This document shows, piece by piece, positions 9,850-61,195 of a DNA stretch of 64,000 nucleotides. Each line of letters starts with the position of its first letter. Position 1 is the first letter of the stretch. The translations under genes were made by a program, and so were the position numbers. The stretch comes from Octopus vulgaris (lineage: Eukaryota), in NCBI GenBank assembly GCA_951406725.2, contig OX597820.1, positions 113,398,001 through 113,462,000 on the forward strand, in the 5' to 3' direction. The notes beneath the pieces were generated by a model, which did not search any database, was not told where the DNA came from, and saw only the letters and a program-made list of their open reading frames with translations.

Positions 9850-12290
9850 TCTCATAGGACCTTTGCATTATAATTTTCGATGATGCCTTCGAGTTTATGT
9901 TCGTACTACTTTTTTTCTCAGTCAAGTCCACAATTTTTGCAAAGTGTCCAATGGACAATCCTTACTATGTTGTCATGACGTCTCTTATATTCTTTCTGGG
10001 CGAGTGGTGTACATTGACTGGTAATATGCCATACGTCTTCATCATTTTGCACTTATCTCTTTTTGATGTGTTGTTTATTCTGTATTTGATGTAATTGTTT
10101 CTGAATGCTTGCTCTTGGGCAGCACAGATTAGAGCCTCTGTTTCTGATTTTAAATCACTTTTAGTCATCCATAGCCGTCTTTTTTCTCTGTCTGTCTTAT
10201 CTTCAACATCCCTATGAAATTGTCCATGCATTCCTTTCTTTATCCAACTATTTTCAGTTTCATTCATTCTCAAGTGCTTGTACAGTACTTTATCTTTACA
10301 ATCTTCCATCCTACATAAGTCTGACCTTACTTCCAATAATAGCGGTTTTGTGGCATTTTTACATACCATGCTATGTTGTTTTCTTCTGCTCTAGTCTCCA
10401 CCTTAAATTTTTCTGTCATTTCTTTCTCTATCAGTTTATCGATTTCCAATATCCCCAAGTACTTATAGCCCGTCTCTTCTATTTGCTTCAAAACATTCCC
10501 CGACGGTATCGCTAACCCGTCCATACATTTGATTTTGCCTCACTTCAAGATTAACATACCATACTTCTTCAGTTCTAACTCCATTATATCAGCACTGAAA
10601 GTATACAGCGTATCAACGAGGGAACTGACTTGAGATTCATCTTTATCATAAAGTTTGAAGTCATCCATGAATAACAAATGGTTGACTTTTTGTTGGCGGC
10701 TCTTGAATACATACACAGCCTTTGCTTTCCTCGGAATCAGTGTTAGTGGTATCATGCACAGTCCAAAGGTCCGTGGGGACAGGCAGTCCCCTTGGAAGAT
10801 GCCTCTCCTGATTTCTATTTTCCCTAAAATTCTTCCATAAGTTGTCAGTTCCGTCCTCCACTTCGCCATACTTTTTCCAAGCAATCACTCAACATTCTAT
10901 GCAATACCAAATAGGTTCATACATTCCATAATCCAAGAATGTGAGATAATATCGTATGCCTTACGATAATCGATTCATGACATGGCTAAGTTAGTTTTCT
11001 TCCTCTTGCAGTCTCTAAGTACAGTTTTGTCTACCAGGAGTTGACTCTTGTTACCTCTGCCCTTACGCTTGAACTCCTGCTCAAGTGGAAGGATTCCATG
11101 CTTTTCCAGATGTCCGTACATTGGCTTTGCGACTATTCCAGTCAATAATTTTTACATAAGTGTCAAACAGGATATCGGCCTGTAATTGTCTTCCGTATCG
11201 CCTTTTCCGATGTTTTCCGAGCAAAACACTGTCCCACCCATTGTCAACTACTCTGGTGTTAATTGGTCGGCATTTAACAAGGTGTTGAGTTGCACAGCTA
11301 TTCGTGCATGACATTCACCAAATCTTTTGATCCAGTAGTCTTGAAATCCATCTGGTCCCGGGGCCTTCCATTTGTCCATTTTTTGCTGATTTCCTTTACT
11401 TCCCTAACTGAAATGACTAGCTCTGGCCTGTTGTGGGCAAACTACTGTTTGTTTCAGTTCTTGCAGCCATTCAGCATCCTTCTTTCGCTCTTTGTCTTTG
11501 CTCCAGATGTCACTCCAAAATCTTTCACTTTCAATGTTATCTGGTATCAACTTTTCATCTGTACACCCTGCATTTATTTCTTTGTAGAATCTCTTCTGAT
11601 CTACCCTGAATAACCTATTCTGCTGCTATCCCTTCATTCTTTGGTCGTATCTTACCATCTTTCACTTGGCTCAATTTCCACCGATCAACCTTTTTATGGT
11701 TGCAAATAATGTCTCTATCGTTCTCCTGTAGCCTTGCCTTTATTCTATCGTAGATTGCCTTTTGTTCATCTGTCATGTTACCATTAATTTTATTATCTTC
11801 TTCCAGACCATCTATATGTCTCTCATCGCGCAAGCTAGCACTGTTCCTCTCCTGTGATTTATTAGAGATCTCACCTCTGTTTTCTGCCGTGAGATTACTT
11901 TTATCAGTAAGAACTGTATTTTCATCGTTTCCACTCCTACTTTCCAATATCCGTCTTTTGATAGCTTCGAGCTCTACTTCTGTGAACCAACGATTTTTTT
12001 CTTATTGCTGAAGCTTGATCACGTAATCTCTTTTCTGTGAGTTGAAACAATCCTCTTTCTCTCCATTGTTCATGCATACGTTGTCGGTATCCCCTAATAT
12101 AAGCACCATTTTCGTCTACAGGATTGCTCAAGTAGTAACACACCATGACCACAACATTGACTTGTTTGTCCCATCTACGCCGTGTGTGCTGGATAACGAC
12201 AGGCTGGAGCCGGACCAGTATCTTTGAGCCTGCCGGGTGCAACACTGTCACCATCAAGTTCTTCAGTTTCATTACCACCGTTATTCACTA
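9850..12290 (-). mobile_element. Decayed R4/Dong-clade non-LTR retrotransposon (N-terminus, RT and start of CCHC region)
   Basis: Frameshifted ORF pieces containing RRGIFQGDCLSP, NHLLFMDDFKLY, YKYLGILE, KGMHGQF and KSETEALICAAQEQ. Confidence 0.88.
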
Positions 12291-12898
12291 TATTTTGTTT
12301 TTTTCATTGTCACTCATATTAGGTAGCGATTATCGGGTTGCGCAATTACCAGTGATTTTATTGTGACACCATCACTCGATGTATCATCGATCTGGACATG
12401 AGGAGATTCCAACCGCTACCTTTCATCATTATTATTGCCATCACTGGTATTATTATTTTCATGTTTTTACTATTTGTCATTGTTAATATTTCCTCTGATC
12501 CGACATGAGTTTTGGCTAATTGTCATTAACACTTTCGTGCTAGTACTAGTTTCCGGGTCTTATCTGTTAGCGTAGACATTATTATTATTATTATCATTAG
12601 TAGTAGTAGTAGTAGTAGTAGTAGCTTTATCACTATTACTAGCGATAGTAGTAGTGGTGGTATCGGTTGTAATGGAGTTATTAATATTAGTATTAGTGGT
12701 GGTGCTATTATTATCAGTCGCCTCAGTTACACTCGTACCTTCATAGGAGGCGGGGGATGTTTCATACCCAGTGCATGGACATGCTAACCACTTAGGTCAT
12801 CCCAGAAACAGCTGTAAGACTTCAAATTAACGTTACCCTAATTAAATTATTCTAAATGACTTGAGATACTCGTTCTGCCATGGTTTTGATTTTCCTCT

Positions 12899-12961
<63 letters not shown>

Positions 12962-13060
12962 AGAAATAAGAGCTAAAATGCTCTAATGCTGTAGTCAAAG
13001 CACCTAATTATATACAAATATACAAACATGGACTATAATCGTCTGAAAACGCCGTTCGAG

Positions 13061-13117
13061 GATTCCTTATACTACATCCAGTTTCGGCAATTTCTGTTGC
13101 CTCATCGGTAAGAATTC
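13061..13117 (-). ncRNA. Type I hammerhead ribozyme (CCGATGA core variant)
   Basis: Minus strand reads gaattctta CCGATGA ggcaa cagaaa ttgcc GAAA ct ggatgt a GTA taaggaatc. Confidence 0.7.
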
Positions 13118-13296
13118 GCTCTACTTTAGTCGCACTCAGTGACAATTATAGTTTTCCTTTTCGGTAAAACATTGCAAACTGCTGTCTATTTTAATTTTAA
13201 GTATACACGTTAGCGATTCCCTAAATCATCCAAATATTACAATGATGAAAACATATACAGACGGAGAATTAAGTCCGAAATCTGCCGAAATAGGGT

Positions 13297-13354
13297 GAGT
13301 CCTTACTGATGAGGCAACCGGATTTGCCGAAACTGAATTAAGTATGAGGAATTC
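13297..13354 (+). ncRNA. Type I hammerhead ribozyme, intact core
   Basis: tcctta CTGATGA ggcaa ccggat ttgcc GAAA ct gaatta a GTA tgagga; stems I, II and III all pair; predicted cleavage after 13344. Confidence 0.85.
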
Positions 13355-13714
13355 TCGGGCGATTATAGTCTCTGTCAGTATATATGTATACAATTATGTG
13401 CTTTGACTACATTAGACCATTTTAGCTCTTATTTCTAGCAATGTATGTGTTTCTAATATCCTAGTCACATTTAGTGACAATTATAGCTTTCATTTTGGGT
13501 AAAAAAAATTGCAAACTATTGTCTATTTTGATTATATCTGTGTGTGTGTGTGTGTGTGTGTGTGTCTGTGTGTGTATCTATACACTTGTTGGCGATTTCT
13601 TTTCCTTCTTTGATTTATATATGTGCGTGTGCATGTGTGTTTGTGCGTGTGTGTGTATTTGTGTGTGTGTGTATGTGTGTGTGTGTGTGTGTGCGTTTGT
13701 GTGTTTGTGTGTTT

Positions 13715-13785
<71 letters not shown>

Positions 13786-14079
13786 TACAGATATGGCGCT
13801 GGCGTTGAGGTGTTTGCATCGCAGTCATATGGTTCCGATATACCGACTTATATAAACGAGTGATACGAGAGCTGTGACATCTTGCTTGTATTAATTTCAG
13901 CTCTCGTTAATAACTGCAAATTCAGAGACAGATAGAGAAAGGAAGGAAGGAAGGAAGGAAGGAAGGAAGGAAGGAAGAAAGAAAGAAAGAAGAGAGAGAG
14001 GCAAACAGACAGACGGACAGACATCTGACTGTTGAAGAAAGACTTCAAAAGTAACTAGTGGCGGCTTCTCTTGAAAATG

Positions 14080-14858
14080 GACGAATAGCGTTTTGCTATT
14101 ATCAAATACCTGCAGAATAGGGTAGAGTCCCTATTCTGCCATGGTTGCTACATTAGAAGATGATACTCCAGCTTTATCAACAAGGCAAAAGTGAGCAGCT
14201 GAATTTAGGATGGGAAGGGAGAGTCTTAAAATTGAACCAAGATCTGGAGGTCCTGCAACTTTTACAATTGAAGAAAAAGTTGATCGTGTTCACCACATGG
14301 TGATGGATGTTAGGCGATTGAGTATAAATCAAATATCCAATGCGATTTGCATATCCCGTGAGGAAGTTGAGAACATTTTGCTCAGTGGACTTGGCAAGAC
14401 GAAGGTTTCTGCGCAGTGGGTATCACATCTGACACCTTATCAAAAGCTCACTAGGCCTATTACATCACGAGAAAATCTGACAGCTGGTTTCCTTGAGCGT
14501 TTACTAACCCCAAATGAGTGATGGCTTCATAACTTTGAGCCAGAGACAAAAAGACAATCCATACAGTGAAAACAGCCCTCCTCACCTGCTCCAAAGATTG
14601 CCAAGGTCGTTCCATCTGCAGGAAAGGTGATGGCCTCTTTTTTGGTGGGATGTAAAAAGCATGGTGTTTATTGATTATCTTCAAAAGGACCACACCATCA
14701 ATGGAGAGTACTATGTCAAATTGCTCAGGCAGTTACGAAATGCTATTAAGAACAAACACCCTGGGAAATTGACGAAAGGGATCTTGTCTCATCAGGACAA
14801 TGCTCTAGCATGCAAGTCCTTGCTTTCAATGGTTGTTGTGCGTGATTGTCGCTTTTGA
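14080..14858 (+). mobile_element. Decayed mariner transposase
   Basis: EPRSGGP, KVSAQWVSHLT (WVPH-like motif), FIDYLQKDHTINGEYY and HQDNA, with stops and frameshifts. Confidence 0.9.
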
Positions 14859-14865
14859 GGCGACT

Positions 14866-25772: not shown

Positions 25773-27201
25773 GAAACAGTTTCTATCCCAGTCGGTCATC
25801 CCGGTTTTCAAACAGGGAAACAGATCCCTCGCAGTCAACTATCGCCCAATCTCACTCACCTCCCACATCATTAAAGTGTTTGAAAGAGTGTTAAGATCAA
25901 GGATAGCTGACTTCCTGGAGACCCACAAACTCCTAAATGCAAATCAGCATGGCTTTCGCTGTGGCAGGGACTGTCTAACACAGCTCTTACACCACATTGA
26001 AGATGTACTCAAAGCCTTGGGAACAGGTTCGAACTCTGACGTCATATATCTTGACTTCAGTAAAGCGTTCGACAGGGTAGACCATAACATCCTACTCTCA
26101 AAATTGGCAAATGTTGGAATCCGTGGAAAAGTTCTACACTGGATTAAGTATTTCCTGGCGAATAGAACACAACATGTTGTAGTTGATGGAGTCCACTCAA
26201 ACCCAGCAAAAGTCACCAGCGGTGTTCCCCAGGGAACTGTTTTGGGTCCGCTACTCTTCATAATTTACGTAAACGACCTTTCCAGCGTCGTACATTACTG
26301 CAAAGTGAAAATATTTGCTGATGACACTAAGCTCCAGCAAATCGTCAATGAAGAAGCAGACCGAACTCAACTCCAGTCTGATCTATATGCTGTGAGTCAA
26401 TGGGCAGACAGAAACAAAATGCAACTGAATGAGGGAAAATTTGAGCTGATGCATTTTGGAAGAAATTCCTCACTAAAACAACCATACTCTCTCCCTTCAG
26501 GGGAACCGCTCACAGCCTCTAACAATATCAGAGACCTGGGTGTAATTGTTGATGACGATCTCAGTTGGAGTGCACACATCAACAAGAAGGTCGATATAGC
26601 TCGTAGGATGAGTTCCTGGATCTTAAGAACTTTCCGGTCCAGAGAACAAGGTGTCATCATACCACTTTTTTCCTCCTTTGTACGGCCACACCTTGAATAC
26701 TGCTGCCCACTGTGGTCTCCTCACACAAGACAAAACATCTCCAGAATTGAGTCACCCCAGAGGGCACTCACTAAACAAATTGAAGGCATGGCTGCTCTCG
26801 ATTATTGGGATCGCCTTAAAGCCTTGAAACTTTACTCCCTCCAGCGTCGCCGTGAGCGGTACATCATTTGTACGATGTGGAAAATATACCGCCAACTTTG
26901 CCCAAACGACCTAAACATTAACTTCAAGGTTCATCCAAGACTTGGACCACGGGCTATACGTCCCCTGCCCAATTCAAGATCACAACATACATGTACACTG
27001 CAACATAATTTCTTTTCCTCAACAGGCCCTGCCCTATTTAACATTGTCCCGAGGGAGATCAAAGAGGAAAAGGATCCCATCAACTTTAAACAGAGTCTGG
27101 ATAGATTCCTTCAAAGAATACCAGATAAGCCACCCATAATTGGATACAACTCACCCAACAAGAACTCACTACTTGAACAAAACTGGATACAACTCACCTA
27201 A
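25771..27201 (+). CDS. Non-LTR reverse transcriptase, C-terminal part of ORF2 (about 476 aa, no true start codon)
   Basis: [47 protein letters not shown] and RDLGV motifs; the upstream IYIY residues are microsatellite. Confidence 0.93.
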
Positions 27202-27537: not shown

Positions 27538-28437
27538 ATACAAGATAAGAAAATGGAGAAATACATCTAAATCAAATATCAATTACCAGATAATACTCAA
27601 TCACATACTTTATTAAACCACCACATAAGAGACTGTAGGGTTAAACATAAAAAAGTAGAACAAAACAGTGTACATAAAGGAATGTACATAAAAAAGTGTA
27701 CATAAAAGAGTAATGTTGTATAATAAGTAGAATATATATAAAAAAAGAGAATATAAATATAAGTAAATATAAATATAAGTAAATATAAATATAAGTATGG
27801 ATTACATCTTACAGCTGTTTCGGCCATGTAGATAAGTATGTCTCATTTTACCAATATTAGTCTTTTATGGTAGGTCAATATATAGATATAAATGAGACAT
27901 TTACAAAAATATCATAAGGCCTCTTCGGAGATATACATATACACATGAGTGCATATACTCACACTCCTATACACATAAAAATATACATATTCATAATGAT
28001 GTAAATAAATAATATAAATTAGTAAACATATATATGTTCCACATTCAATGTTTCAGTTTTTCAACTTAATATTGTGATAATAAACATACACATATTAGTA
28101 CCTAGATGCAAATATACATAGTCAATAGTACATTATATTACTTCCTACTAATTTCCAAAGTGTCATTAAAGTTAGCATCATTATCGTTGTCAATACCATT
28201 AATGCTACCATTATTATCATTCATAATATTATTAACAACGCTTACATTAGGATCCAAAGTGGCACATATGTATGTCCGGGTTCCAGTTAGTAATTTTCCT
28301 TATGACATAAATACACTATTGGATTTGAATTTAAATTATCATTGTCTTCCTCGGTGGTTTAATAAAGTATGTGATTGAGTATTATCTGGTAATTGATATT
28401 TGATTTAGATGTATTTCTCCATTTTCTTATCTTGTAT
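27538..28437 (-). mobile_element. Non-coding HHR element bounded by an inverted repeat of about 84 bp
   Basis: About 27538-27621 is the reverse complement of about 28354-28437. Confidence 0.75.
27803..27935 (-). ncRNA. Type I HHR with extended stem II and palindromic stem III
   Basis: Minus strand reads tatatct CCGAAGA ggcc...(about 90 nt with inner stem atgtctcattt/aaatgagacat)...ggcc GAAA cagct GTA agatgta. Confidence 0.75.
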
Positions 28438-28623: not shown

Positions 28624-29366
28624 GATCTATGTACTTGTGATATTTTTCTGTATTTACCCCCAAACCTTCGTGAGCTGTCTAGAGTAAACATTATCTGAGA
28701 GAAATTTTCTTTAAGTAGTAGAAATGCTAAGAAAATTTTTTTTGGCTGCTATTTCTACTAAGTTCAGTATGTGGCAAAGTAATTTATTTTACTAAGCCCT
28801 AATTATATAATGTAATATTTTGAATTCGCCTTAAATGGTCCTTTTACATACTGAACACTTGGTGAAATTGATTAATTAATTAATTTTACCCTCAATTGTT
28901 GATATTATAATTCATATCTCTCGGTCATACTGCCTTGGTTCTCGCGGTTAAAATATAATGTTTGCTAGATAGACCACGTGGGTGGAATGGGGAGTGCAGA
29001 ATTTTACGCCTGCGCATTTTGAATTTGTTGACACTGTTAGTTGGAGTGGTTCATCTGAAGCGACAAGTCGCTGATAGGTAAAGTTCCTTCTTTTTAGTGT
29101 TTCCAAATCCAAATTAAGAAATTTTGAGCTGACGAAAGAAATGCTGATTTTATTTGGCTAATCTTGAAACGTTGACGTACTCAAACGATCTATGTACTTG
29201 TGATATTTTTCTGTATTTACCCCCAAACCTTCGTGAGCTGTCTAGAGTAAACATTATCTGAGAGAAATTTTCTTTAAGTAGTAGAAATGCTAAGAAAATT
29301 TTTTTTGGCTGCTATTTCTACTAAGTTCAGTATGTGGCAAAGTAATTTATTTTACTAAGCCCTAAT

Positions 29367-29374
<8 letters not shown>
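28624..29374 (+). mobile_element. Retrozyme-like element: 563-bp unit with 188-bp terminal redundancy
   Basis: 28624-28811 matches 29187-29374; an HHR immediately precedes the second copy. Confidence 0.85.
29123..29185 (+). ncRNA. Type I hammerhead ribozyme, intact
   Basis: tttgag CTGACGA aaga...tctt GAAA cg ttga c GTA ctcaaa; predicted cleavage after 29179. Confidence 0.88.
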
Positions 29375-29418
<44 letters not shown>

Positions 29419-30006
29419 GTATGTATATATATATATATGTATGTATGTATGTATGTATGCATGCATGCATGTATGTATGTATGTATGTATGTATGTAATA
29501 TTAATGATTCGAGAGAGAATCAGGTATTTAAATGGTAGGCTCCAAGTTGGGTCGAATTAACTTGTAGACATCACCTAGTAAATACCAGGTTGAGCTGGAG
29601 TCTAGTTGTGATCCCACTAGATTGTTCTTCGTTTGTTTGAAATGCAACGCATTCTCTGATGAAAACGGATTTTTGTTATGACGCAATGTACTCATTCATC
29701 TATTTAAGAAATACATTAGAAACAGTTGTAATGAACTGACATTTATCCATCGTTTATTTATTTATATATTTATTTGCTATGTGTGTCTGTGTTCTCGCGT
29801 GAAGGCACGTCAGTAAGTAGTTAGAACAAAGGGCTTATAATCGTGAGGTTGTGAGATCGATTCCCGGATCTGGCTGCGTGTTGTGCTCTTGGGCAAGACA
29901 TTATTTCACTTTGCTCCATTTCACTCAGCTGTAGAATTGTGTTGCGACGTCACTGGTGCCAAGCCGTATCGATCTTTGCTTTTCCCTTGGATACCATCGG
30001 TGGCTT

Positions 30007-30862
30007 TGATACCATCAGTTGATACCATCTCTGGTAAGGGCTTTGAAATAAAACCAAGAAGAAGTTCCAGACACCCAGCTGAGTACTTGACAGACACTGA
30101 CTTTGCTGACGACATCGCTCTTATCAGTGATTCTCTCTCCAATGCCCAGTCTCTTTTACAATCTCTTGAACAAGCCTCAAATTGTGTAGGTCTTTACCTT
30201 AATGAGACCAAAACTGAATACATAAACAAGTGCCTGTCCAACAGTGATTGCATCATCCACACTCTCAACAGTGCACCTTTAAATATGGTTTCTGATTATA
30301 AATATCTTGGGTCATACATATCATCATCTGGAAAAGACTTTCTAACTAGAAAGGGTATGGCCTGGTCAGCCTGTAATGACATGCATAAGATCTGGTCATC
30401 AAATCTAAGTAGAGACTTCAAACTTGAAATATTCAAAGCCACAGTCGAACCAATCCTACTATATGGCTCAGAAACCTGGACGTTATCAAAGAAGCTTGAG
30501 AGGCGGTTGGATGGAACCTACACTCGCCTCCTTATGAGAGCTCAAAATCTCTCGTGGAGGCGCCATCCAACTAAAATGCAAATATATGGGAAATTACCAC
30601 CTGTGTCATCTCTTGTGAAGGGTAGGAGAGTCCAGTTTGCTGGACATTGTTGTAGAGCTGAAAAAGAAGTAATTTCTACTCTTCTCCTCTGGAAGCCATC
30701 TACTCGCAACACCAGAGGGCGCACACTCTCCTACCCTGATGTAATCTCCAGGGATACAGGCATCCAGCAACAGGACCTCCGTAATGCTATGATGGACCGT
30801 GAAGTCTGGCGCAACATGGTAAATTCCATTGTCTCGACCACGGTCGAACAATGATGATGATG
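30007..30862 (+). mobile_element. 5'-truncated RTE-clade LINE
   Basis: 11-bp TSD atcggtggctt at 29996-30006 and 30863-30873; (TGA)n tail. Confidence 0.92.
30021..30854 (+). CDS. RTE RT C-terminus, open frame (partial)
   Basis: DTDFADDIAL, GLYLNETKT, YKYLGS, LLYGSETW and FAGHCCR motifs. Confidence 0.9.
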   Translation, partial: DTISGKGFEIKPRRSSRHPAEYLTDTDFADDIALISDSLSNAQSLLQSLEQASNCVGLYLNETKTEYINKCLSNSDCIIHTLNSAPLNMVSDYKYLGSYISSSGKDFLTRKGMAWSACNDMHKIWSSNLSRDFKLEIFKATVEPILLYGSETWTLSKKLERRLDGTYTRLLMRAQNLSWRRHPTKMQIYGKLPPVSSLVKGRRVQFAGHCCRAEKEVISTLLLWKPSTRNTRGRTLSYPDVISRDTGIQQQDLRNAMMDREVWRNMVNSIVSTTVEQ

Positions 30863-32697: not shown

Positions 32698-33555
32698 AGG
32701 TGCAGGAGTGGATGTGTGGTAAGTAGCTTGTTTACCAACCACATGGTTCTGGGTTCAGTCCCACTGCTTGGCACTTTGGGCAAGTGTCTTCTACTGTAGC
32801 CTCGGGCCGACCAAAACCTTGTGAGTGGATTTGGTAGACGGAAACGTATATATGTATATATGTTTGAGTGTCTGTGTTTGTCCCCCTAGCATTGCTTGAC
32901 AACCGATGCTGGTGTGTTTATGTCCCCGTCACTTAGCGGTTCGGCAAAAGAGACCGATAGAATAAGTACTGGGCTTACAAAGAATAACTGACTGAAACAA
33001 GTAAAAGAGTAAAGTATATATATCTATCTATCTATCTATATATATATATATATATATATACGATATAGTGTATATTTAAACACATGAGGAATCCACTTAT
33101 AGGAATTCAACACGCTATAGAACCTAGCTGTTCTTTCTAGCGTGTTAAATTCCTATAAGTGGATTCCTCATGTGTTTAAATATACACTATATCGTATATA
33201 TATATATATATATATAGATAGATAGATAGATAGATAGATATATACTCTTTACTCTTTTACTTGTTTCAGTCAGTTATTCTTTGTAAGCCCAGTACTTATT
33301 CTATCGGTCTCTTTTGCCGAACCGCTAAGTGACGGGGACATAAACACACCTGCATCGGTTGTCAAGCAATGCTAGGGGGACAAACACAGACACTCAAACA
33401 TATATATATATATACATATATACGTTTCCGTCTACCAAATCCACTCACAAGGCTTTGGTCGGCCCGAGGCTATAGTAGAAGACACTTGCCCAAAGTGCCA
33501 CGCAGTGGGACTGAACCCGGAACCATGTGGTTGGTAAGCAAGCTACTTACCACAC
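32698..33555. repeat. Palindrome of about 850 bp with a SINE A copy in each arm
   Basis: About 32713-33117 is inverted against about 33138-33555; both SINE copies carry the same two internal deletions. Confidence 0.92.
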
Positions 33556-33819
33556 ATATCGTATGACTAATATATAGTCTTTTGGACTAATTTTTTACAC
33601 GTTAGATCACTGGAAATGTAAATTTTAATTAATTTCCATTTCCCTTTGATATGATTAAATATTGTAAGTTTTTAGGATAATTTTCGATTTTAAAAGTTGG
33701 CTTCTTTTATTGCCGGCGAAGGACTGCGGCTGCGCAGTAGATTTTGAAAGAGTTAGGACGTATAAATACGGGGAAGGTAGTTTTGATCGCCCCGTGTGTA
33801 TACGTTTAGCCCTCGGTGG

Positions 33820-34899: not shown

Positions 34900-34995
<96 letters not shown>

Positions 34996-35028
34996 GAAAG
35001 AATGTAGTTGAATGACGATTTAACAAAA

Positions 35029-35127
35029 TTCCTTTATTCTCGACATATGTTTCGAAGACTGCATATTCCTAATTTCGAAGGAATAAGGGGTGTATTATGC
35101 CGCCTTCTCATCAGGAAAGACAAGGAA
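35029..35127 (-). ncRNA. Type I HHR (mirror copy)
   Basis: Reverse complement of 35250-35347 with an intact core. Confidence 0.85.
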
Positions 35128-35249
35128 CTTATGTCAGCATCATGATGAACAAAAACTTTTAGATTACTGCCCACACGGAGTTATTATCGCTATGGACTCC
35201 GTGTGGGCAGTCATCAAAAAGTTTTTGTTCATCATGATGCTGACATAAG

Positions 35250-35347
35250 TTCCTTGTCTTTCCTGATGAGAAGGCGGCATAATACACCCTTATTCCTTCG
35301 AAATTAGGAATATGCAGTCTTCGAAACATATGTCGAGAATAAAGGAA
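35250..35347 (+). ncRNA. Type I HHR, intact, with palindromic stem III (ACATATGT)
   Basis: ttccttgtctttc CTGATGA gaaggc...gtcttc GAAA catat GTC gagaataaaggaa; predicted cleavage after 35334. Confidence 0.88.
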
Positions 35348-37399
35348 TTTTGTTAAATCGTCGTTCAACTCCATTCTCTCATTTATTTGTACTAAAAAAA
35401 CACACAAATTTCCACACGAAAGCACGTGATCTCTGCCCTTGGCATGTAGCTTCAACCGTGTTTTTCTGACGTGAATTTGCTACCCGGGTATCGGTTAACC
35501 GAATTATCCATACTAGGATAATTCATTCAACTACTTATATATATATATCTATATTGTCTTGTTTTCCATTTGTTTCTTTCATTGTTGCAAAAAAGTTCAT
35601 ATTCCATGTATTCGTATTTCGTATCTCATGTTTTCGTTTTTTAATGTTGTTTTTGTTCCGTGACATCCTATGCCCACATATGCATATGTATATACGTATA
35701 GATGTAAGTATGTACATTTACGTATGTATATATGCATATATATATATATATTATTTATATCATTATATGATTGAACGCCACGAATTCCTTTTCCAAGTAG
35801 GTTTAATCTTAATAATTCTGATGCGACACTATTCTATCCTATTACTCTTTCGTTTTCTCTCTTCCTTTCTCTTATTCTTTTACCTCCCCTTCTTCCCCTC
35901 TCGCTTTTTTTCTCTTATCATTTCTCCAAATCTTTTCCTCTCCCCTTCACAGTTCTCTGCCTGTCACTCCCTCTCCCTCACTATTTTGCTTTCGAGGCTC
36001 ACACTAACTTTTCCTAACTTGTGCGTCTTTCTTTCTGTCTGTTGCAGCTGGAGGAATGAGACGCATTCTTGTCTGTCTCCTGTCCAAGCTTGTTTCTCCG
36101 TGTTAGCCATCTCACCTCGTTTAGGCTTAGCAGCCGTCGCTGTTTGTTTTTACTGTCCTCTTTTTGTTACCAATTTTGACCCTCCACAAAATGTCAAATT
36201 TTATTTAGTTTGTTTTGCGGAAGCAACTGTTTTATCGAAGGCGTATTTTGTCTTTGAATTGCTCGAAATACGGATTAGAAAGCAGCCGACTGATGAAGGG
36301 TCGTTCGTTATGTTACTTGTCTTGTTTCCCATTAGTTTCTTTCGTTATTGCAAAAAAAAAACAGTTCATATTCCATGTATTTGCATTTCGTATTTCATGT
36401 TTTCGTTTTTTATGTTGTTTACGTTTCGTGACGTCCTGTGCCCACATATACATATATATATATATATAAGGACCTAAATCCTTCAAAGGGATTTTTTATT
36501 ATAATACGTTCTAGTGGAGAGTATATTGGCTTTTTTTTTTTTTTTTAATTAGTTAACTCTATAATTCTTAGTATTAAATAGGGGTTTTTTTCATTAACTT
36601 ATCTGTTGGTTGATTGTCTATTTTCCTTTTTCTTTTGTATAGACGGTAATTGCAAATGTCGTTAACAAATATTTATATATTGTGTATTGTCATTTGAATT
36701 AATGCTTAAGTGGCTTTATATATTTTTCTGTTTTTGATCTATCTGGCGTTCGGTTAATTATTATTTAATTGTTTGCTCCTTTTCGGGATATTGTAAAGGT
36801 CTTCATATTTTTGTTGGCATAACTCATTCATTCCAATAATGAATTCCCAAACAAAACCTAATTTGTGATTTCAAAACGATAATATTTCGTTTTGTTTTGA
36901 ATTAATTAGACTTGGAAACAACTTGAAGAGTTTTTGTTGGACATATGCACCAACTTGGAATAAACTAACGTCTACGCTTCTATTTTACCTTTCTTTATTA
37001 TACTGTGTGTGTGTGTGTGCGTGTGTGTGTGTCTATGTGTGGGTGTATGCATGTATATATGTATGTAAGTATACGACAGACTTTTTTCAGTTTCCACCTA
37101 CGAAATCCACCCACAAGGTTATAGCAACAGACACTCGCTCCAGATGTAGAAGAACCCGAAATCATGCAGTTAGGAAACTTCTTACCACACAGCAATAACT
37201 GTGTCTGTAGGCTTGATGATGTCACAAGTATAGGACAGTGTATGAAGGGTCTCGCCACTTATTTCTGCCATTTGTCACTATATATGTGTGTCTGAGTGTA
37301 TGTGCGTGAGATGTTTTTTATGTATGTGTGTATATATATTTGTGTGAAAGTGCAAAATCCGATATATATATATGTGTGTGTATATATATATATATATAT

Positions 37400-47155: not shown

Positions 47156-47210
47156 GTGATACGCATGGACTGCAGTTTCGAGATTATTGTCTCTTGTCAA
47201 CGCTAATCAC
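47156..47210 (-). ncRNA. Decayed HHR in a PLE 3' repeat
   Basis: Minus strand reads gtgattagcg TTGACAA gaga caataa tctc GAAA ctgca GTC catgcgtatcac. Confidence 0.65.
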
Positions 47211-47229
47211 GGGTTTTCGATAAGAGTGA

Positions 47230-47485
47230 CCTGTTTGCGAATATCTATTTAATGTTTTTCCAGTAACCACTGGAAGAGAGTTGAGCCCATGTGGCGCAAA
47301 GTAGCGAAGAGAGATTAATCCCTGTTGACCCCTGTGCAAGGACAATCCGAACACAGACAGGTGTTGTAAAGAATCAACAGTAGAGCGGAAATGGCGCGAA
47401 ACCGGAGTGTCGTTGCCGAGTCTGATGTCTCGGAGGTGTTCTGCGAACCGGTCAGCCAAGCGGCGTCACGTTTGACCGTAAGGAC
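47230..47485 (-). mobile_element. Penelope-like GIY-YIG endonuclease remnant
   Basis: YGQT*RRLADRFAEHLRDIRLGNDTPVSRHF. Confidence 0.75.
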
Positions 47486-49357: not shown

Positions 49358-50439
49358 TGTGCGATGCACAGAAATGATGGCATGATAAACAATGTCATTA
49401 TGCTGTAACTAGCAGAAGTTTTTTTCTGCTGCAACATCGAGATGATCCAAACATTTCGAAGAAAATTAGAGAAACTGAAAATTTCTTGAAGCACGTATTT
49501 CGCCTACTCCTGTAATTCAAAGGGCGTCCATTATCATACACAGTTTTATGCTAAAGTTGTCTTAAGATTACATCGAGGCAACAACAGCGGTGGAATAATC
49601 AGTCCTAAGCACTATTATCCCTTCTACTCTGGGTATAAGGCTTGAGATTTTAGGGGAGAAAGTAAGTTGATTTCATCGACCCCAGTGCTGAACAAGAACT
49701 TATTTCATCGAACCCGAAAGGATGAATGGCAAAGTCGACTTCGGCGGAATTTCAACTCAAAAGTCACACCATATAATACAACGAGTATTTTCTTTGTTCA
49801 AACAACTGGATTTTTCATTCGTCAAAAGTAATACTCTATGTTCAGCATAGGGATAAAATTATGGTTAGGGGATAGGGTGCAATTAGTAATATTTACTGAA
49901 TTTTTTACTTCGAAAAAAAAAAAATTTTTTACAAATGTTCACTGCCTTATATGATCTATATCAGCTAAGAAAATGGCTTCTAAATGCATTAAAACCGCTA
50001 TAACATTCAAAGCTCTATTTCAGAAAATTATCTTCGCTTTCTTTGGGTATATAAAGACAAATTTGGCCGGAGGAAATTGAGTAAGACAAATAAGTTAAAT
50101 TTGCCCCTTCAGTACTCCCGAATTACATTTGAGGAAAGGCTCTTACACATCAATACCCATCTTTAGACATTAGAAAGACAGAAATGCAACAAAAATTTAA
50201 AATATCTAGGTCAACGGAAAGATGAAAATGGTACATGATATAAAATGAACGAAACTTGGCTAAATCGAAAAACACAACAAAATATTCTCTGTAGTTTCTT
50301 GACGATCTGCTGGAGTGGTTTTCTTCATGAGATATTTACATTTTTTTTTACCAACGGCTATAATAGATCCTCTCGCGGACGAGGGCATGTCCTGACCTTT
50401 CCGCTATTCTTTGGGCTTCATATGAATCCACTGGTGTGA

Positions 50440-51320
50440 ACAGGAAGATGTCCAAGTACTGTTAGATCATGTGAACTCAAGAAAGCCATCCATACAGTTC
50501 ACAAAGGAAAAAGGAAAAAACAATCAACTAGCACTCCTGGATGTATTGATAACACGCACCAAGTATGGATTCAGGACATCTGTATACTGCAAGCCAACCT
50601 TCACTGGACGATACCTCAACTTCAACTCCCACCATCCATACAGTGTAAAGAGAGGGATTACTCAGTGCCTAAAACATCGAGCAAAGTAACGATCCTGATA
50701 CACAACACGAAGAAATGATCAAGCTAAGTAACAATCTATTAAGCAACACTTACCCCCAAAACATACTATCCACTCCAATTTATAAAGAGAAGGGAGGATG
50801 AAACCCATAAACTGACCACAGTCTGTCTACTCTATGTGAAAGGCCTCTCCGAAAAGATACGAAAGATATACGGCTCATATGACATCAGGACAGAATTCAA
50901 GAGTAATACAACTCTTCTCAAATATCTCCTTCGAGTAAAACCACCACTAGAAGAGAATCTGACCCAAAACTGCATGTACTCAATCCCATGCAGCTGTGGT
51001 GGGTTATACAAAGGCGAAACATGCCGCCCCCTCAAAATAAGGGTAGAGGAACATCGCAAAGTTGTGACACAGGGAGATATTGAAAAATCGGGTATAGCTG
51101 ATCATGTATGGAAAAATGGAGACCACCCCCTGTGGGATGAAGTTAAAATAACAGAGAATACCACTGGAAAATACGAAAACTAAGAGAGGCAGTACATATG
51201 CTAGGACATAATAACCTCCTAAGCTGACCGAGTGCAGATATGAGTAGAATACGGGAACCGGCATTAAGGAAGGATAGGAAAATATTAGATTAAGAAGGCC
51301 TGAAATTCACTCCATAATAG
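50440..51320 (+). mobile_element. Penelope-like element remnant (RT thumb and GIY-YIG)
   Basis: IQFTKE..LALLDVLITR..VYCKPT..YLNFNSHHP and MYSIPCSCGGLYKGETCRPLKIRVEEH. Confidence 0.9.
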
Positions 51321-54282: not shown

Positions 54283-54333
54283 GGATGAGTGCTGATGAGG
54301 GAGAAAAACTCCTGAAATATGGCATAGACATCC
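54283..54333 (+). ncRNA. Solo type I HHR with imperfect stem I
   Basis: ggatgagtg CTGATGA gggag aaaaa ctcct GAAA t atggc ATA gacatcc. Confidence 0.6.
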
Positions 54334-56766
54334 ATTTTCGTCTTCGATCTCATTGTTGTTTACATGAGACGTTCTTGTAACGAATCAGTGCTGGCTATAA
54401 TTCCTATAGAAAACCGATACCAATGACCTTAACAAATTACATTTTGTCACGAATAGATCTCTTTGGAATTATACAGGTTTGTGTGAGTTCAATAAGAGTA
54501 ATATGACAAAGCATCGAACTCTTCATTTGCACCTGAACTCAATTGTTTAACTCTGCATTTAGCAGAGTTATGAATCGAAAATTATCCTCTATCTCTTTTT
54601 GTTCACTCCTTAATTAGCATTGGGAACCGTTTCTACCTCATACGAATAGGTCAATTTTGTTTAGTTTGTAAGTAAAAAAAACAGCTGATCTTTGATGTTT
54701 TTTCCCTTCACACAGTTGTCCAGTATTGTTGCTGTTAGCGTCTCATACCAACATAACTCTTCTTGCTGAGTGGCCTGGCAAACTGTCGAAGTAGGCTTTA
54801 AACTCCACCGTCCGTTTCCAATGTCAACCACTCCATGCAAACAATTTCAGAAATTACCACTGTGAAAACGAATATATCTATTCCATTTCGAAAACACGAT
54901 CTCACTTTGTCCCGTCAAAACTCTCTGGTGTCTTGCCGATTCATTCTGAGATATGAACTGCAGTGACTTTGGAATATCCAACCACTTGCACGATAATTCA
55001 ATGAGCTCGATTGATTGAGCTGGTACTAACGAATATTTATTTACAAATTATTGTAGCCAGAAGACCACAAACTCCATGTTTAGCGTCATACAAATAACAG
55101 TGATGGTTTCTAACCGAGATACGATCCCGCACTTAATTTTATTTATTTTTATCTTTAAACGAAGGGGTAGAGAGGATAGTGGGGGTATTGTCAATCAAAT
55201 CAACCTCTGTAGATGACAGGTACTTACTTTATCGATCTCAGAAGTAAGAGAAGTAAAGTCATCAGAAGACAATTCTCTAACACTCTACCTATTCTGTTAA
55301 CAAACACAAAAAATAAACGTTACAAAATATATAAAGACCACAACGACAATAACAGCGATACGTTGAATACAATTCTACTGCCGTTCCTCAATGCATATGT
55401 CTGACGCTTCTGACGACGAATGATCGGCCAAGCTTATGAAAGAAAAGGAAACAAAAAGAAGAACAAAACAAAAACATAGCTAACTTGTTGAACATTTAAT
55501 AATGGACCATACACTAGCGGATATAGGGGCTGAAGTAAGATGGAGGTGTTTTCAATTATCTTCATAGAAAATGTAGTCCTATTGTGATGATGATTGCTTC
55601 TAACCTGCAGCTGATTGGAGAATCATATTGATGACTGAGTGGGAAGAAAGAAGCAAAAAAGAAATGACAGACTGTGCGAAGGAGGAGGGAAGATGTGGGC
55701 AGGAAAAAAACAAAATAAGATGAGAAGGATGTGTACTAAAGAGTAAGTACTTAACACATATAATAAGCATATATATATGTGTGTGTGTGTATGTATGTGT
55801 GTGTGTATATGTATGTATATGCATGTATATGTATGTATGTCTTCATATAATGTTTATATTCGTATATATACATGTATATGTATATTTATATATGTACTTG
55901 TGTATGTATATATATATATACCTATATATATACACATATATAATACATTATACCTATATATATAATACATATATACCTATATATACCTAGATATACCTAG
56001 ATACATATATATATATATACATACATACATATGTACATATATACATACATGCACACACACACACACATACATACATACATACATACATACATACATACAT
56101 ACATACATACATACATACATACATACAAGGGAGTGGACAAACGAAAGATATAGCACCCAAGCGACTGGTGGAGTTGGAATTATATGTATTAAATAGCAGT
56201 TTGAGTCAACTCCACATTTCTTAAAGATTCTTCGGCATAGAATACGACCACATCATCTGAGGCAAAGTAGAGAGATTTTAAAAGAAATTCAGGCACGCAC
56301 AAACATACACATACACAGGCAGACACGCATACACACACATGTATATACCTATGTGTATACATTAATATAGACTTGTGTACTCAAGGATACGCATATACAC
56401 ACATACTTAAGCCAAACGAATGCGATATATAAAAAATAATACAAATAAGTTATTTGTACTTTTACATTGCATTTCAAAACCTCGGGTTGGGAGACCTGTC
56501 GCAGAAAAACTTCAGAGATATGGCGTTGATATATATAGATCGTTAGACACTACACACATTTTTTTCTCTCCTTGTATATCTCCTCATCTTTTTCTCTCCT
56601 TTTTTTCTCTCCTTGTTTCTTTCCTTGTTTTTTCTGTGTCCTTTTCTGTAGAAGAGCGTAGGCTCGAAACGTAAAAGACGTTTTCTATTCCTGAGCGTTA
56701 TACTAATACATCTGTTTGTTTTGCACACCACCTGTCTTCGTCTTTTATTTTTTTCGTAAACTCTCC

Positions 56767-56844
<78 letters not shown>

Positions 56845-56976
56845 TTTGTTTACAGGAAACGTTTTGAATATTCAAATAAAACTCCAATTTTGGCCACAGT
56901 CTAATAATGCTCACTTGGGAACCAGTTCTTTGCGGTTGCATCGAGTTGTAATGATATAATATGGGGTGAATATAGT

Positions 56977-57381
56977 AATTATAACAATAATCCTTACATG
57001 AAATTTATAAACATTTAATGCATCGCTACGCGCGTTTCCACAGATCTCTTGAGATCACAGTCTGTATTCCTGGGATGATTACAGTGTAGTTCGTAGTATA
57101 CGTGGACATCGGTTTGATCATCTTCATGGATTCATTTCTTCAGTCGATGTAACATTGACCACTGGTCAAAAGGAATAAACATCCCTCTGTTAAACATCCA
57201 TTAATGTTATGTCGCTTGAAGAAATAAATCGATGAATATGATCAACCCGATGCCCACTGATACTACGAACCACACTAATCATCCCAAGAATACAGACTGT
57301 GATCTTAAGAGATTTGTGGAAACGCGCGTAGCGATGCATTAATCGTTTATAAATGCCATCCAAGGATTATTGTTATTATTA
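56977..57381. repeat. Diverged palindrome of about 400 bp with one long-stem-II HHR per arm
   Basis: Minus HHR at 57021-57149 (CTGAAGA...GAAA cgcgc GTA gcgatg); plus HHR at 57211-57335 (TTGAAGA...GAAA cgcgc GTA gcgat). Confidence 0.85.
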
Positions 57382-57382
57382 C

Positions 57383-57480
<98 letters not shown>

Positions 57481-60998: not shown

Positions 60999-61195
60999 GT
61001 GTGAAGGCGTGTGGCTCAGTGGTTAGGGTATTCGGTTCACGATCGTAAGGTCATGAGTTCAATTCCCGGCGACGCCTTTTGTCCTTGAGCAAGATACTTT
61101 ATTTCACATTACTCCAGTACACTCAGCTGGCAAAAATGAGTAGTACCTGCATTTCAAAAGGCCAGCCTTGTTACAATCTGTGTCGTGCTGAATCA
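60999..61195 (+). mobile_element. SINE family D-like
   Basis: A box tggctcagtgg, B box gagttcaattcc, then tccttgagcaagatact. Confidence 0.8.

Follow-up and report, generated by a model that had tools for sequence, protein, structure and literature searches.

A decayed hammerhead-bearing insertion with a 335-nt repeat spacing in Octopus vulgaris, a likely short derivative of a Penelope-type retrotransposon

We studied a stretch of 64,000 nucleotides from Octopus vulgaris (contig OX597820.1, hereafter the window), an AT-rich DNA with many microsatellites and retroelement remnants. A decayed element of about 640 bases (12958-13597) carried a hammerhead motif, an inverted copy and a repeat at 335-base spacing. 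Next to a (TA)n tract (12901..12958), which was likely the insertion target and the primer of what follows, lay an inverted arm (12958..13126, negative strand) that mirrored the sense strand of 13288-13440, with 129 identities in 169 columns, 16 of them gap columns (E 1e-32); the arm had 13 nt and 3 nt absent from the sense copy. The remaining parts, all in the positive strand, were A1, the first copy of a terminal redundancy of about 92 nt (13127..13218); a single-copy spacer (13219..13287); the sense copy of the hammerhead-bearing segment (13288..13440); 21 nt (13441..13461) that, on the template, separate the arm's outer end from the start of A1; and A2, the second copy of the redundancy (13462..13597), interrupted by a (TG)n tract at 13539-13575. 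The arm did not overlap the first direct repeat and copied the template stretch directly upstream of A1.

Both repeat pairs stood far above background: local scores were 143 for the inverted pair and 82 for the direct pair, with a maximum of 32 for each in 500 dinucleotide shuffles, which confirmed the inverted hammerhead-bearing copy proposed in the preliminary description. The same description had the first 70 bp or so of the unit recurring at its end; this repeat was real (13462-13536 against 13127-13199, 62/75, E 8e-16), at a spacing of 335 nt from start to start that becomes 337 past a 2-nt indel, but its extent had been set too short. Beyond the (TG)n tract the direct repeat resumed, with 16 of 17 aligned bases identical between 13202-13218 and 13579-13597, a score reached in 1/20000 shuffles and in 2/6320 genomic windows; this extends the redundancy to about 92 nt and places the element's right end at about 13597. 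The sense part thus comprises about 1.27 periods, and the GC content of the 335-nt period was 35%. Counting substitutions only, divergence was the same in the inverted pair (23/150, 15.3%) and in the direct pair (11/71, 15.5%; Fisher p = 1.0), and an assembly artefact or assembly duplication was ruled out because the copies differ at about 15% of their sites. Note that the 335-nt period rests on the single junction 13218/13219, and that the arm ends 69 nt short of it.

A descriptor search for type I hammerheads located one motif in each orientation. The sense motif (13300..13350) had an intact core at 13306, helices I, II and III of 6, 5 and 3 pairs, and a GUA triplet as its predicted cleavage site (after 13344); that of the inverted arm (13064..13114, negative strand, core at 13108) had helices of 6, 5 and 4 pairs and one core change, U4C, with which it is likely impaired. 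Under the strict descriptor there were five matches in the 64-kb window and none in each of 20 shuffled windows. Rfam gave no hammerhead at its gathering threshold, the match being a sub-threshold Hammerhead_3 (21 bits, E 0.11). The predicted hammerhead fold was above the local energy minimum in both copies (-10.7 vs -13.7 and -8.0 vs -10.4 kcal/mol, a gap of 2.4-3.0), and helices I and II appeared in longer predicted folds with a probability of about 0.55 for the sense copy and 0.9 with the arm. Since the only other hammerhead is antisense, the locus itself cannot release a monomer or a circle by double self-cleavage.

The two hammerheads differed at nine positions, six of them among the 12 loop positions and three among the 39 in stems or core (post hoc p = 0.003); the two changes in helix I left the pairing intact. 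Judged from the pattern of substitutions, this loop bias with preserved pairing suggests that the two functional template units would already have been unlike each other. Part of the 15% divergence thus apparently predates the insertion, and 15% is an upper bound on its age.

Segments of the unit also showed pairing with each other. In the predicted fold, helix I is lengthened into a long stem by the spacer part 13245-13287 and its pairing partner 3' of the hammerhead; in the two copies the duplex energy was reached by 4/1000 and 7/1000 shuffles, in windows picked after the fold had been seen. The 13 nt present only in the arm found their best pairing partner at 13274-13290 (three overlapping windows of 320; 220/5000 shuffles). 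Together, these pairings make the spacer and the hammerhead segment one folded RNA domain. Segment A had no significant pairing with the rest of the unit, and a hairpin across its end (13171-13217), considered as support for a natural unit, was discarded as non-significant (215 to 1519 of 2000 shuffles). Retrozymes are highly self-paired as circles; folded in this form, the 335-nt period did no better than shuffles (z -0.8, 22/100), and z was -0.9, -1.0, -2.2 and -1.8 over the four copy combinations. Decay lowers the power of this test: random decay of 8.7% can erase a signal (z from -0.1 to -4.4 in eight simulations), and the background included z values below -4 in 3 of 21 arbitrary windows.

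The absence of a coding body, as initially described, held in both searches made. Pfam, run on 10 of the 30 short frames at the locus, gave nothing below E 0.1; a nec1 match on an antisense frame (E 0.17), below the family's cut-off, was rejected. Because Pfam also missed a true Penelope-like element (PLE) remnant in the same window, we built a PLE profile, covering one PLE lineage, from RT/GIY-YIG proteins related to the remnant at 50743-51180 (25 of 26, with P0024 omitted). It detected the control remnant at 50426-51278 (E 7.5e-64) and nothing at the locus, where the best tblastn match within 12500-14000 had E 7.8; the single RT plus GIY-YIG ORF that is the hallmark of autonomous EN+ PLEs was accordingly not detected with this one-lineage profile. 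Searches for relatives returned none in phage records and, for the hammerhead pattern, none in GTDB genomes. A 55-aa frame in the negative strand had no candidate among proteins of 30-97 residues, and a 48-aa frame spanning the junction gave three matches (E 8e-6 to 6e-5, 38-44% identity, 4-10 stretches each) that look like summed repeat matches and were set aside. An 11-nt string had one match in the accessible portion of the Craig 2021 supplement, outside any hammerhead context, and was judged a chance hit. An intron-like stretch was seen by eye at 13373-13438. In the literature outside subscription papers, no octopus or cephalopod hammerhead or retrozyme family of this kind was found described.

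The window held seven hammerhead motifs at five loci, i.e., four loci besides the one at 12958-13597; a further descriptor match at 30330 (negative strand) had a core mismatch, was lost under stricter settings and is excluded from these counts. At 28624-29377 (positive strand) lies a younger element in which a 191-nt repeat at 563-nt spacing (190/191 identical) encloses a hammerhead (core 29129, predicted cut after 29179) and which ends in (TA)n. Its first repeat begins 8 nt past the equivalent of the cut site, its longest stop-free frame has 69 aa, its circular fold has z -7.2 with helix I of the hammerhead free, and the repeat and the middle part pair strongly (0/2000 shuffles). It is a better retrozyme candidate than 12958-13597. 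The negative-strand hammerhead at 27538-28437 (core 27928 with one mismatch, predicted cut after 27810) lies in an 815-nt copy and has a 100-nt helix II region and a palindromic helix III; an 85-nt inverted arm, identical at 85/85 positions, abuts the copy and starts at the same 3' end. At 34990-35386, adjoining (TA)n, a head-to-head inverted pair with a short spacer has an intact hammerhead in each arm (cores 35114, negative, and 35263, positive; helix II regions of 53-54 nt), and a lone motif at 54287-54337 (positive strand, core 54292) has no local repeat. The differing geometries of these loci indicate that such layouts are common in this genome and vary by insertion.

Other features of the window included the control remnant already mentioned (50426-51278, positive strand), a frameshifted C-terminal RT plus GIY-YIG part of a PLE with 69-74% identity to the best database protein, and a weaker GIY-YIG-like frame noted by eye at 47184-47465 (negative strand). 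RT fragments occurred at 25780-27198, 29847-30851 and 10543-10884. Just left of the element studied here, 12805-12819 is a 15-nt exact match (E 0.035) to helix III and the cut site of the hammerhead cut at 27810; it follows a predicted stem, has no clear core and is possibly a decayed half hammerhead. A dispersed repeat pair at 32712-33557 is inverted around an inner palindrome, with arms 94-95% identical, and 56971-57386 is a fold-back (82%); fold-back products seem frequent in this genome. To the right, the decayed frames at 14050-14860 resemble, by eye, a mariner-type transposase; 14195-14518 had no Pfam match. At 61006-61077 (positive strand) a tRNA-like motif just at the Rfam threshold (29.3 bits) is probably a SINE head.

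We then considered the geometry of the insertion. The outer end of the arm corresponds to 13440 and the first base of the adjoining A1 to 13462, which makes them template neighbours separated by a gap of 21 nt; by rough arithmetic such closeness has a chance of 6-13% in a 335-nt unit, a support that is suggestive only. The first 10 nt of this gap (13441-13450, positive strand) may have been an internal priming site: they are an alternating purine-T tract whose whole length can pair with a DNA end made of (TA)n, and 13127-13536 has just one other such tract, at 13378-13390. The arm is joined to the (TA)n tract, and microsatellites flank the element, (TA)n on the left and (TG)n on the right. An extension of the arm past the (TA)n tract was looked for and none was found (about 510-540 of 1000 shuffles scored as well), and the flanks showed neither a target-site duplication nor any collinear duplication. 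In twin priming, the part that ends up inverted lies immediately upstream of the direct part on the template, and Ostertag and Kazazian reportedly described in 2001 the 5' inversions that it produces in L1. The adjacency of arm and A1 would fit twin priming, at a (TA)n target, on an RNA of 1.8 units: on a single template this needs about 600-620 nt, i.e., 1.8 units with two hammerheads 335 nt apart. The equal divergence of both repeat pairs is what is expected if the arm and A1 come from one unit and the remainder from another, and a monomeric circle as template would be disfavoured by the loop-biased differences between the hammerheads. In the available part of PMC11167929, a PLE protein in purified form cuts and elongates both strands of its target, initiates internally on RNA, prefers AT-rich DNA and uses uncleaved RNA. 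Within the accessible literature on 'twin priming' and 'Penelope', no application of twin priming to PLEs was found.

Taken together, the locus is likely a shortened Penelope-type retrotransposon derivative, of a kind that has been described before. We see an even chance that a short non-autonomous PLE or non-LTR retrozyme with a true unit of 335 nt inserted here long ago, and that this copy is now passive. The steps of such an insertion can be proposed. A source locus with at least two hammerhead-bearing units of 335 nt, either a dimeric non-LTR retrozyme or a PLE that had lost the ORF between its pLTRs, would be transcribed, and an RNA of about 1.8 head-to-tail units of about 335 nt would be used uncleaved by a PLE reverse transcriptase. 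The GIY-YIG endonuclease, acting in trans, would nick both strands of a simple-repeat target. One DNA end would prime at the position that is now 13597 and be extended leftwards through one unit plus 92 nt; the other end, (TA)n, would anneal to the purine-T tract of the upstream unit, from which about 169 nt would be copied in the opposite orientation. As in twin priming, the joining of the two cDNAs, at 13126/13127, would cost 11 to 21 nt, and the copy would afterwards decay and acquire the (TG)n tract. That the locus is in this full sense a fossil of retrozyme integration, i.e., a multimeric 335-nt hammerhead RNA inserted by PLE machinery that primed both target strands on one molecule, at the 3' start site and at the internal (TA)n-complementary tract, is a tentative proposal.

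A single copy cannot show that 335 bases are a real replicating unit, because the same sequence results from copying a tandem template, from truncation followed by a template jump, and from deletion of an ORF at a later time. The period and the GC content fit the published retrozyme range and in this agree with the earlier suggestion of a 335-nt replicating unit. That 335 nt is the replicating unit is not shown: the junction was seen once, the arm falls short of it and the 64-kb window holds no second family member.

The locus could instead derive from a longer, probably autonomous PLE that was truncated at its 5' end: reverse transcription would have stopped after about 335 nt (about one pLTR) and jumped to the 3' start of a second, twin-primed RNA, and the 335 nt would be accidental. 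We regard this as somewhat unlikely. The consulted sections of PMC8557442 present 5' truncation, partial tandems and adjoining truncated copies in inverted orientation as standard PLE features; single and opposite-strand hammerheads 100-700 bp apart are ascribed to truncated PLEs in those of PMC4209133; and rotifer Penelope pLTRs measure about 190-220 bp according to PMC3846280, as far as its accessible text goes. The loop-biased differences between the hammerheads also fit two separate RNA molecules, and a PLE coding remnant lies within the same window. Yet a jump after premature termination is an extra event, the spacer contains no coding remnant, and the element at 28624-29377 shares the repeat-hammerhead-repeat layout without a long ORF, in parts that pair strongly.

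The short unit might also never have replicated at all, if a nearly full-length PLE with a 5' inversion later lost its ORF by one deletion at 13218/13219, which we consider improbable. In the available text of PMC11167929 and PMC3846280 the PLE tail after the 3' pLTR is the start of the body, as A1 and A2 would be, the latter source reports an internally deleted Penelope copy, and the locus is old, with 15% divergence between copies. However, neither side of the junction holds a coding remnant, and in both copies the frame starting from an ATG in the hammerhead core meets a stop within 13 codons. Finally, it is very improbable that segment A is host DNA and the element ends at about 13440-13461, with A1 as filler from the right flank or as part of a very long target duplication: the arm does stop at the equivalent of 13440, where the sense copy runs into a microsatellite-like tract, both arms end at the same base at 27538/28437, and the lack of significant pairing leaves A untied to the rest of the unit, but 92 nt far exceed the 8-10 bp Penelope duplications given in the accessible part of PMC3846280, the arm would fall outside such a duplication, and a 92-nt filler beside an exact priming site would be a coincidence.

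The kind of element is already known, with hammerheads in PLE terminal repeats described in 2014, animal retrozymes of 170-400 nt in 2020 and their derivation from pLTRs in a 2026 preprint; the part of the finding worth following is the twin-priming reading. If many copies shared the 335-nt junction and PLE-type inversions, the anatomy of the insertions would test both the partner and the form of the template (circle or linear multimer) from genomes alone. Should the locus be the fossil of retrozyme integration proposed above, a family-wide survey of junctions would provide direct structural evidence that PLEs mobilise retrozymes, and equally that a linear, uncleaved multimer of unlike units, not a monomeric circle, serves as the template. 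If the 335-nt period is accidental, the locus is an ordinary truncated PLE fragment.

Animal non-LTR retrozymes are 170-400 nt long, with a GC content under 45%, and are proposed to be PLE-mobilised pLTR derivatives (PMC7229834; bioRxiv 10.64898/2026.07.22.740005; both, like the sources below, cited from their accessible portions). Those of 170-400 nt were described in coral, mussel and axolotl (PMC7229834), and Li, Clavereau and Pollet 2026 derive retrozymes from the pLTRs of PLEs (bioRxiv 10.64898/2026.07.22.740005); in the accessible portions of both sources the PLE partner is inferred from co-occurrence and similarity, and the mechanism is left unresolved. The locus resembles metazoan retrozymes in its type I hammerhead with a 6-bp helix I, in being non-coding as far as Pfam (10 of 30 frames) and the one-lineage PLE profile go, and in the presence of PLE coding sequence in the same genome; the core is intact, with a sub-threshold Rfam match. 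Its 335 nt compare with 350-390 nt in mussel and 330-350 nt in axolotl and, with a GC content of 35%, lie inside the retrozyme range, a placement that is valid only if the spacing is the true unit. In contrast to metazoan retrozymes, the locus has 1.27 sense units and a 5'-inverted arm, the word 'inverted' being absent from the main text of PMC7229834. An active retrozyme has two or more units in tandem whose hammerheads point the same way (bioRxiv 10.64898/2026.07.22.740005, available part); with one sense and one antisense hammerhead, the locus therefore falls outside that class. Whether the element nevertheless works like a PLE-mobilised retrozyme copy is evenly balanced in our judgement. 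Among the classes in the accessible text of PMC4209133, the hammerhead, with its 6-bp helix I and no extra base before helix II, is nearer to the 'canonical' than to the minimal PLE motifs. Similar helices occur in Hydra-clade PLEs, no more than about 200 nt from the 3' end (PMC8557442 supplement, available part), so hammerhead shape cannot separate retrozymes from autonomous PLEs.

The layout was originally likened to the inverted-pLTR and partial-tandem arrangement of PLEs, a likeness that we found in the hammerhead, the partial tandem, the inverted 5'-truncated arm and the microsatellite flanks, but not in the geometry, which is not head to head. In a typical Penelope the inverted pLTR mirrors the adjoining direct pLTR, head to head (Arkhipova 2013, PMC3846280, accessible part), whereas the arm, an inverted 5'-truncated copy adjacent to a partial tandem as in PLEs, does not mirror the adjoining repeat. 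As in PLEs, the hammerhead lies in a terminal repeat near the 3' end, the cut site being 96 nt from one of the two 3' ends and 213 nt from the other; these ends are offset by about 113 nt, compared with the PLE tail of 30-40 bp. With EN+ PLEs (Craig 2021, PMC8557442; PMC3846280; accessible parts) the locus shares the direct terminal redundancy, the inverted truncated copy abutting the 5' end and the (TA)n flank; it differs from them in that no RT/GIY-YIG ORF was detected and no target-site duplication was found. Chlamys PLEs such as MRC1 are likewise non-coding PLE derivatives that form pLTRs and head-to-tail insertions; according to the available text of PMC8557442 they come from green algae and their family status is based on many copies. 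Compared with L1 twin priming (summarised in PMC2246262, accessible part), the locus has neither a poly(A) tail nor L1 sequence and its cargo is a hammerhead-bearing repeat, but both have the inverted segment just upstream on the template, a small loss at the breakpoint and complementarity between the flank and an internal site.
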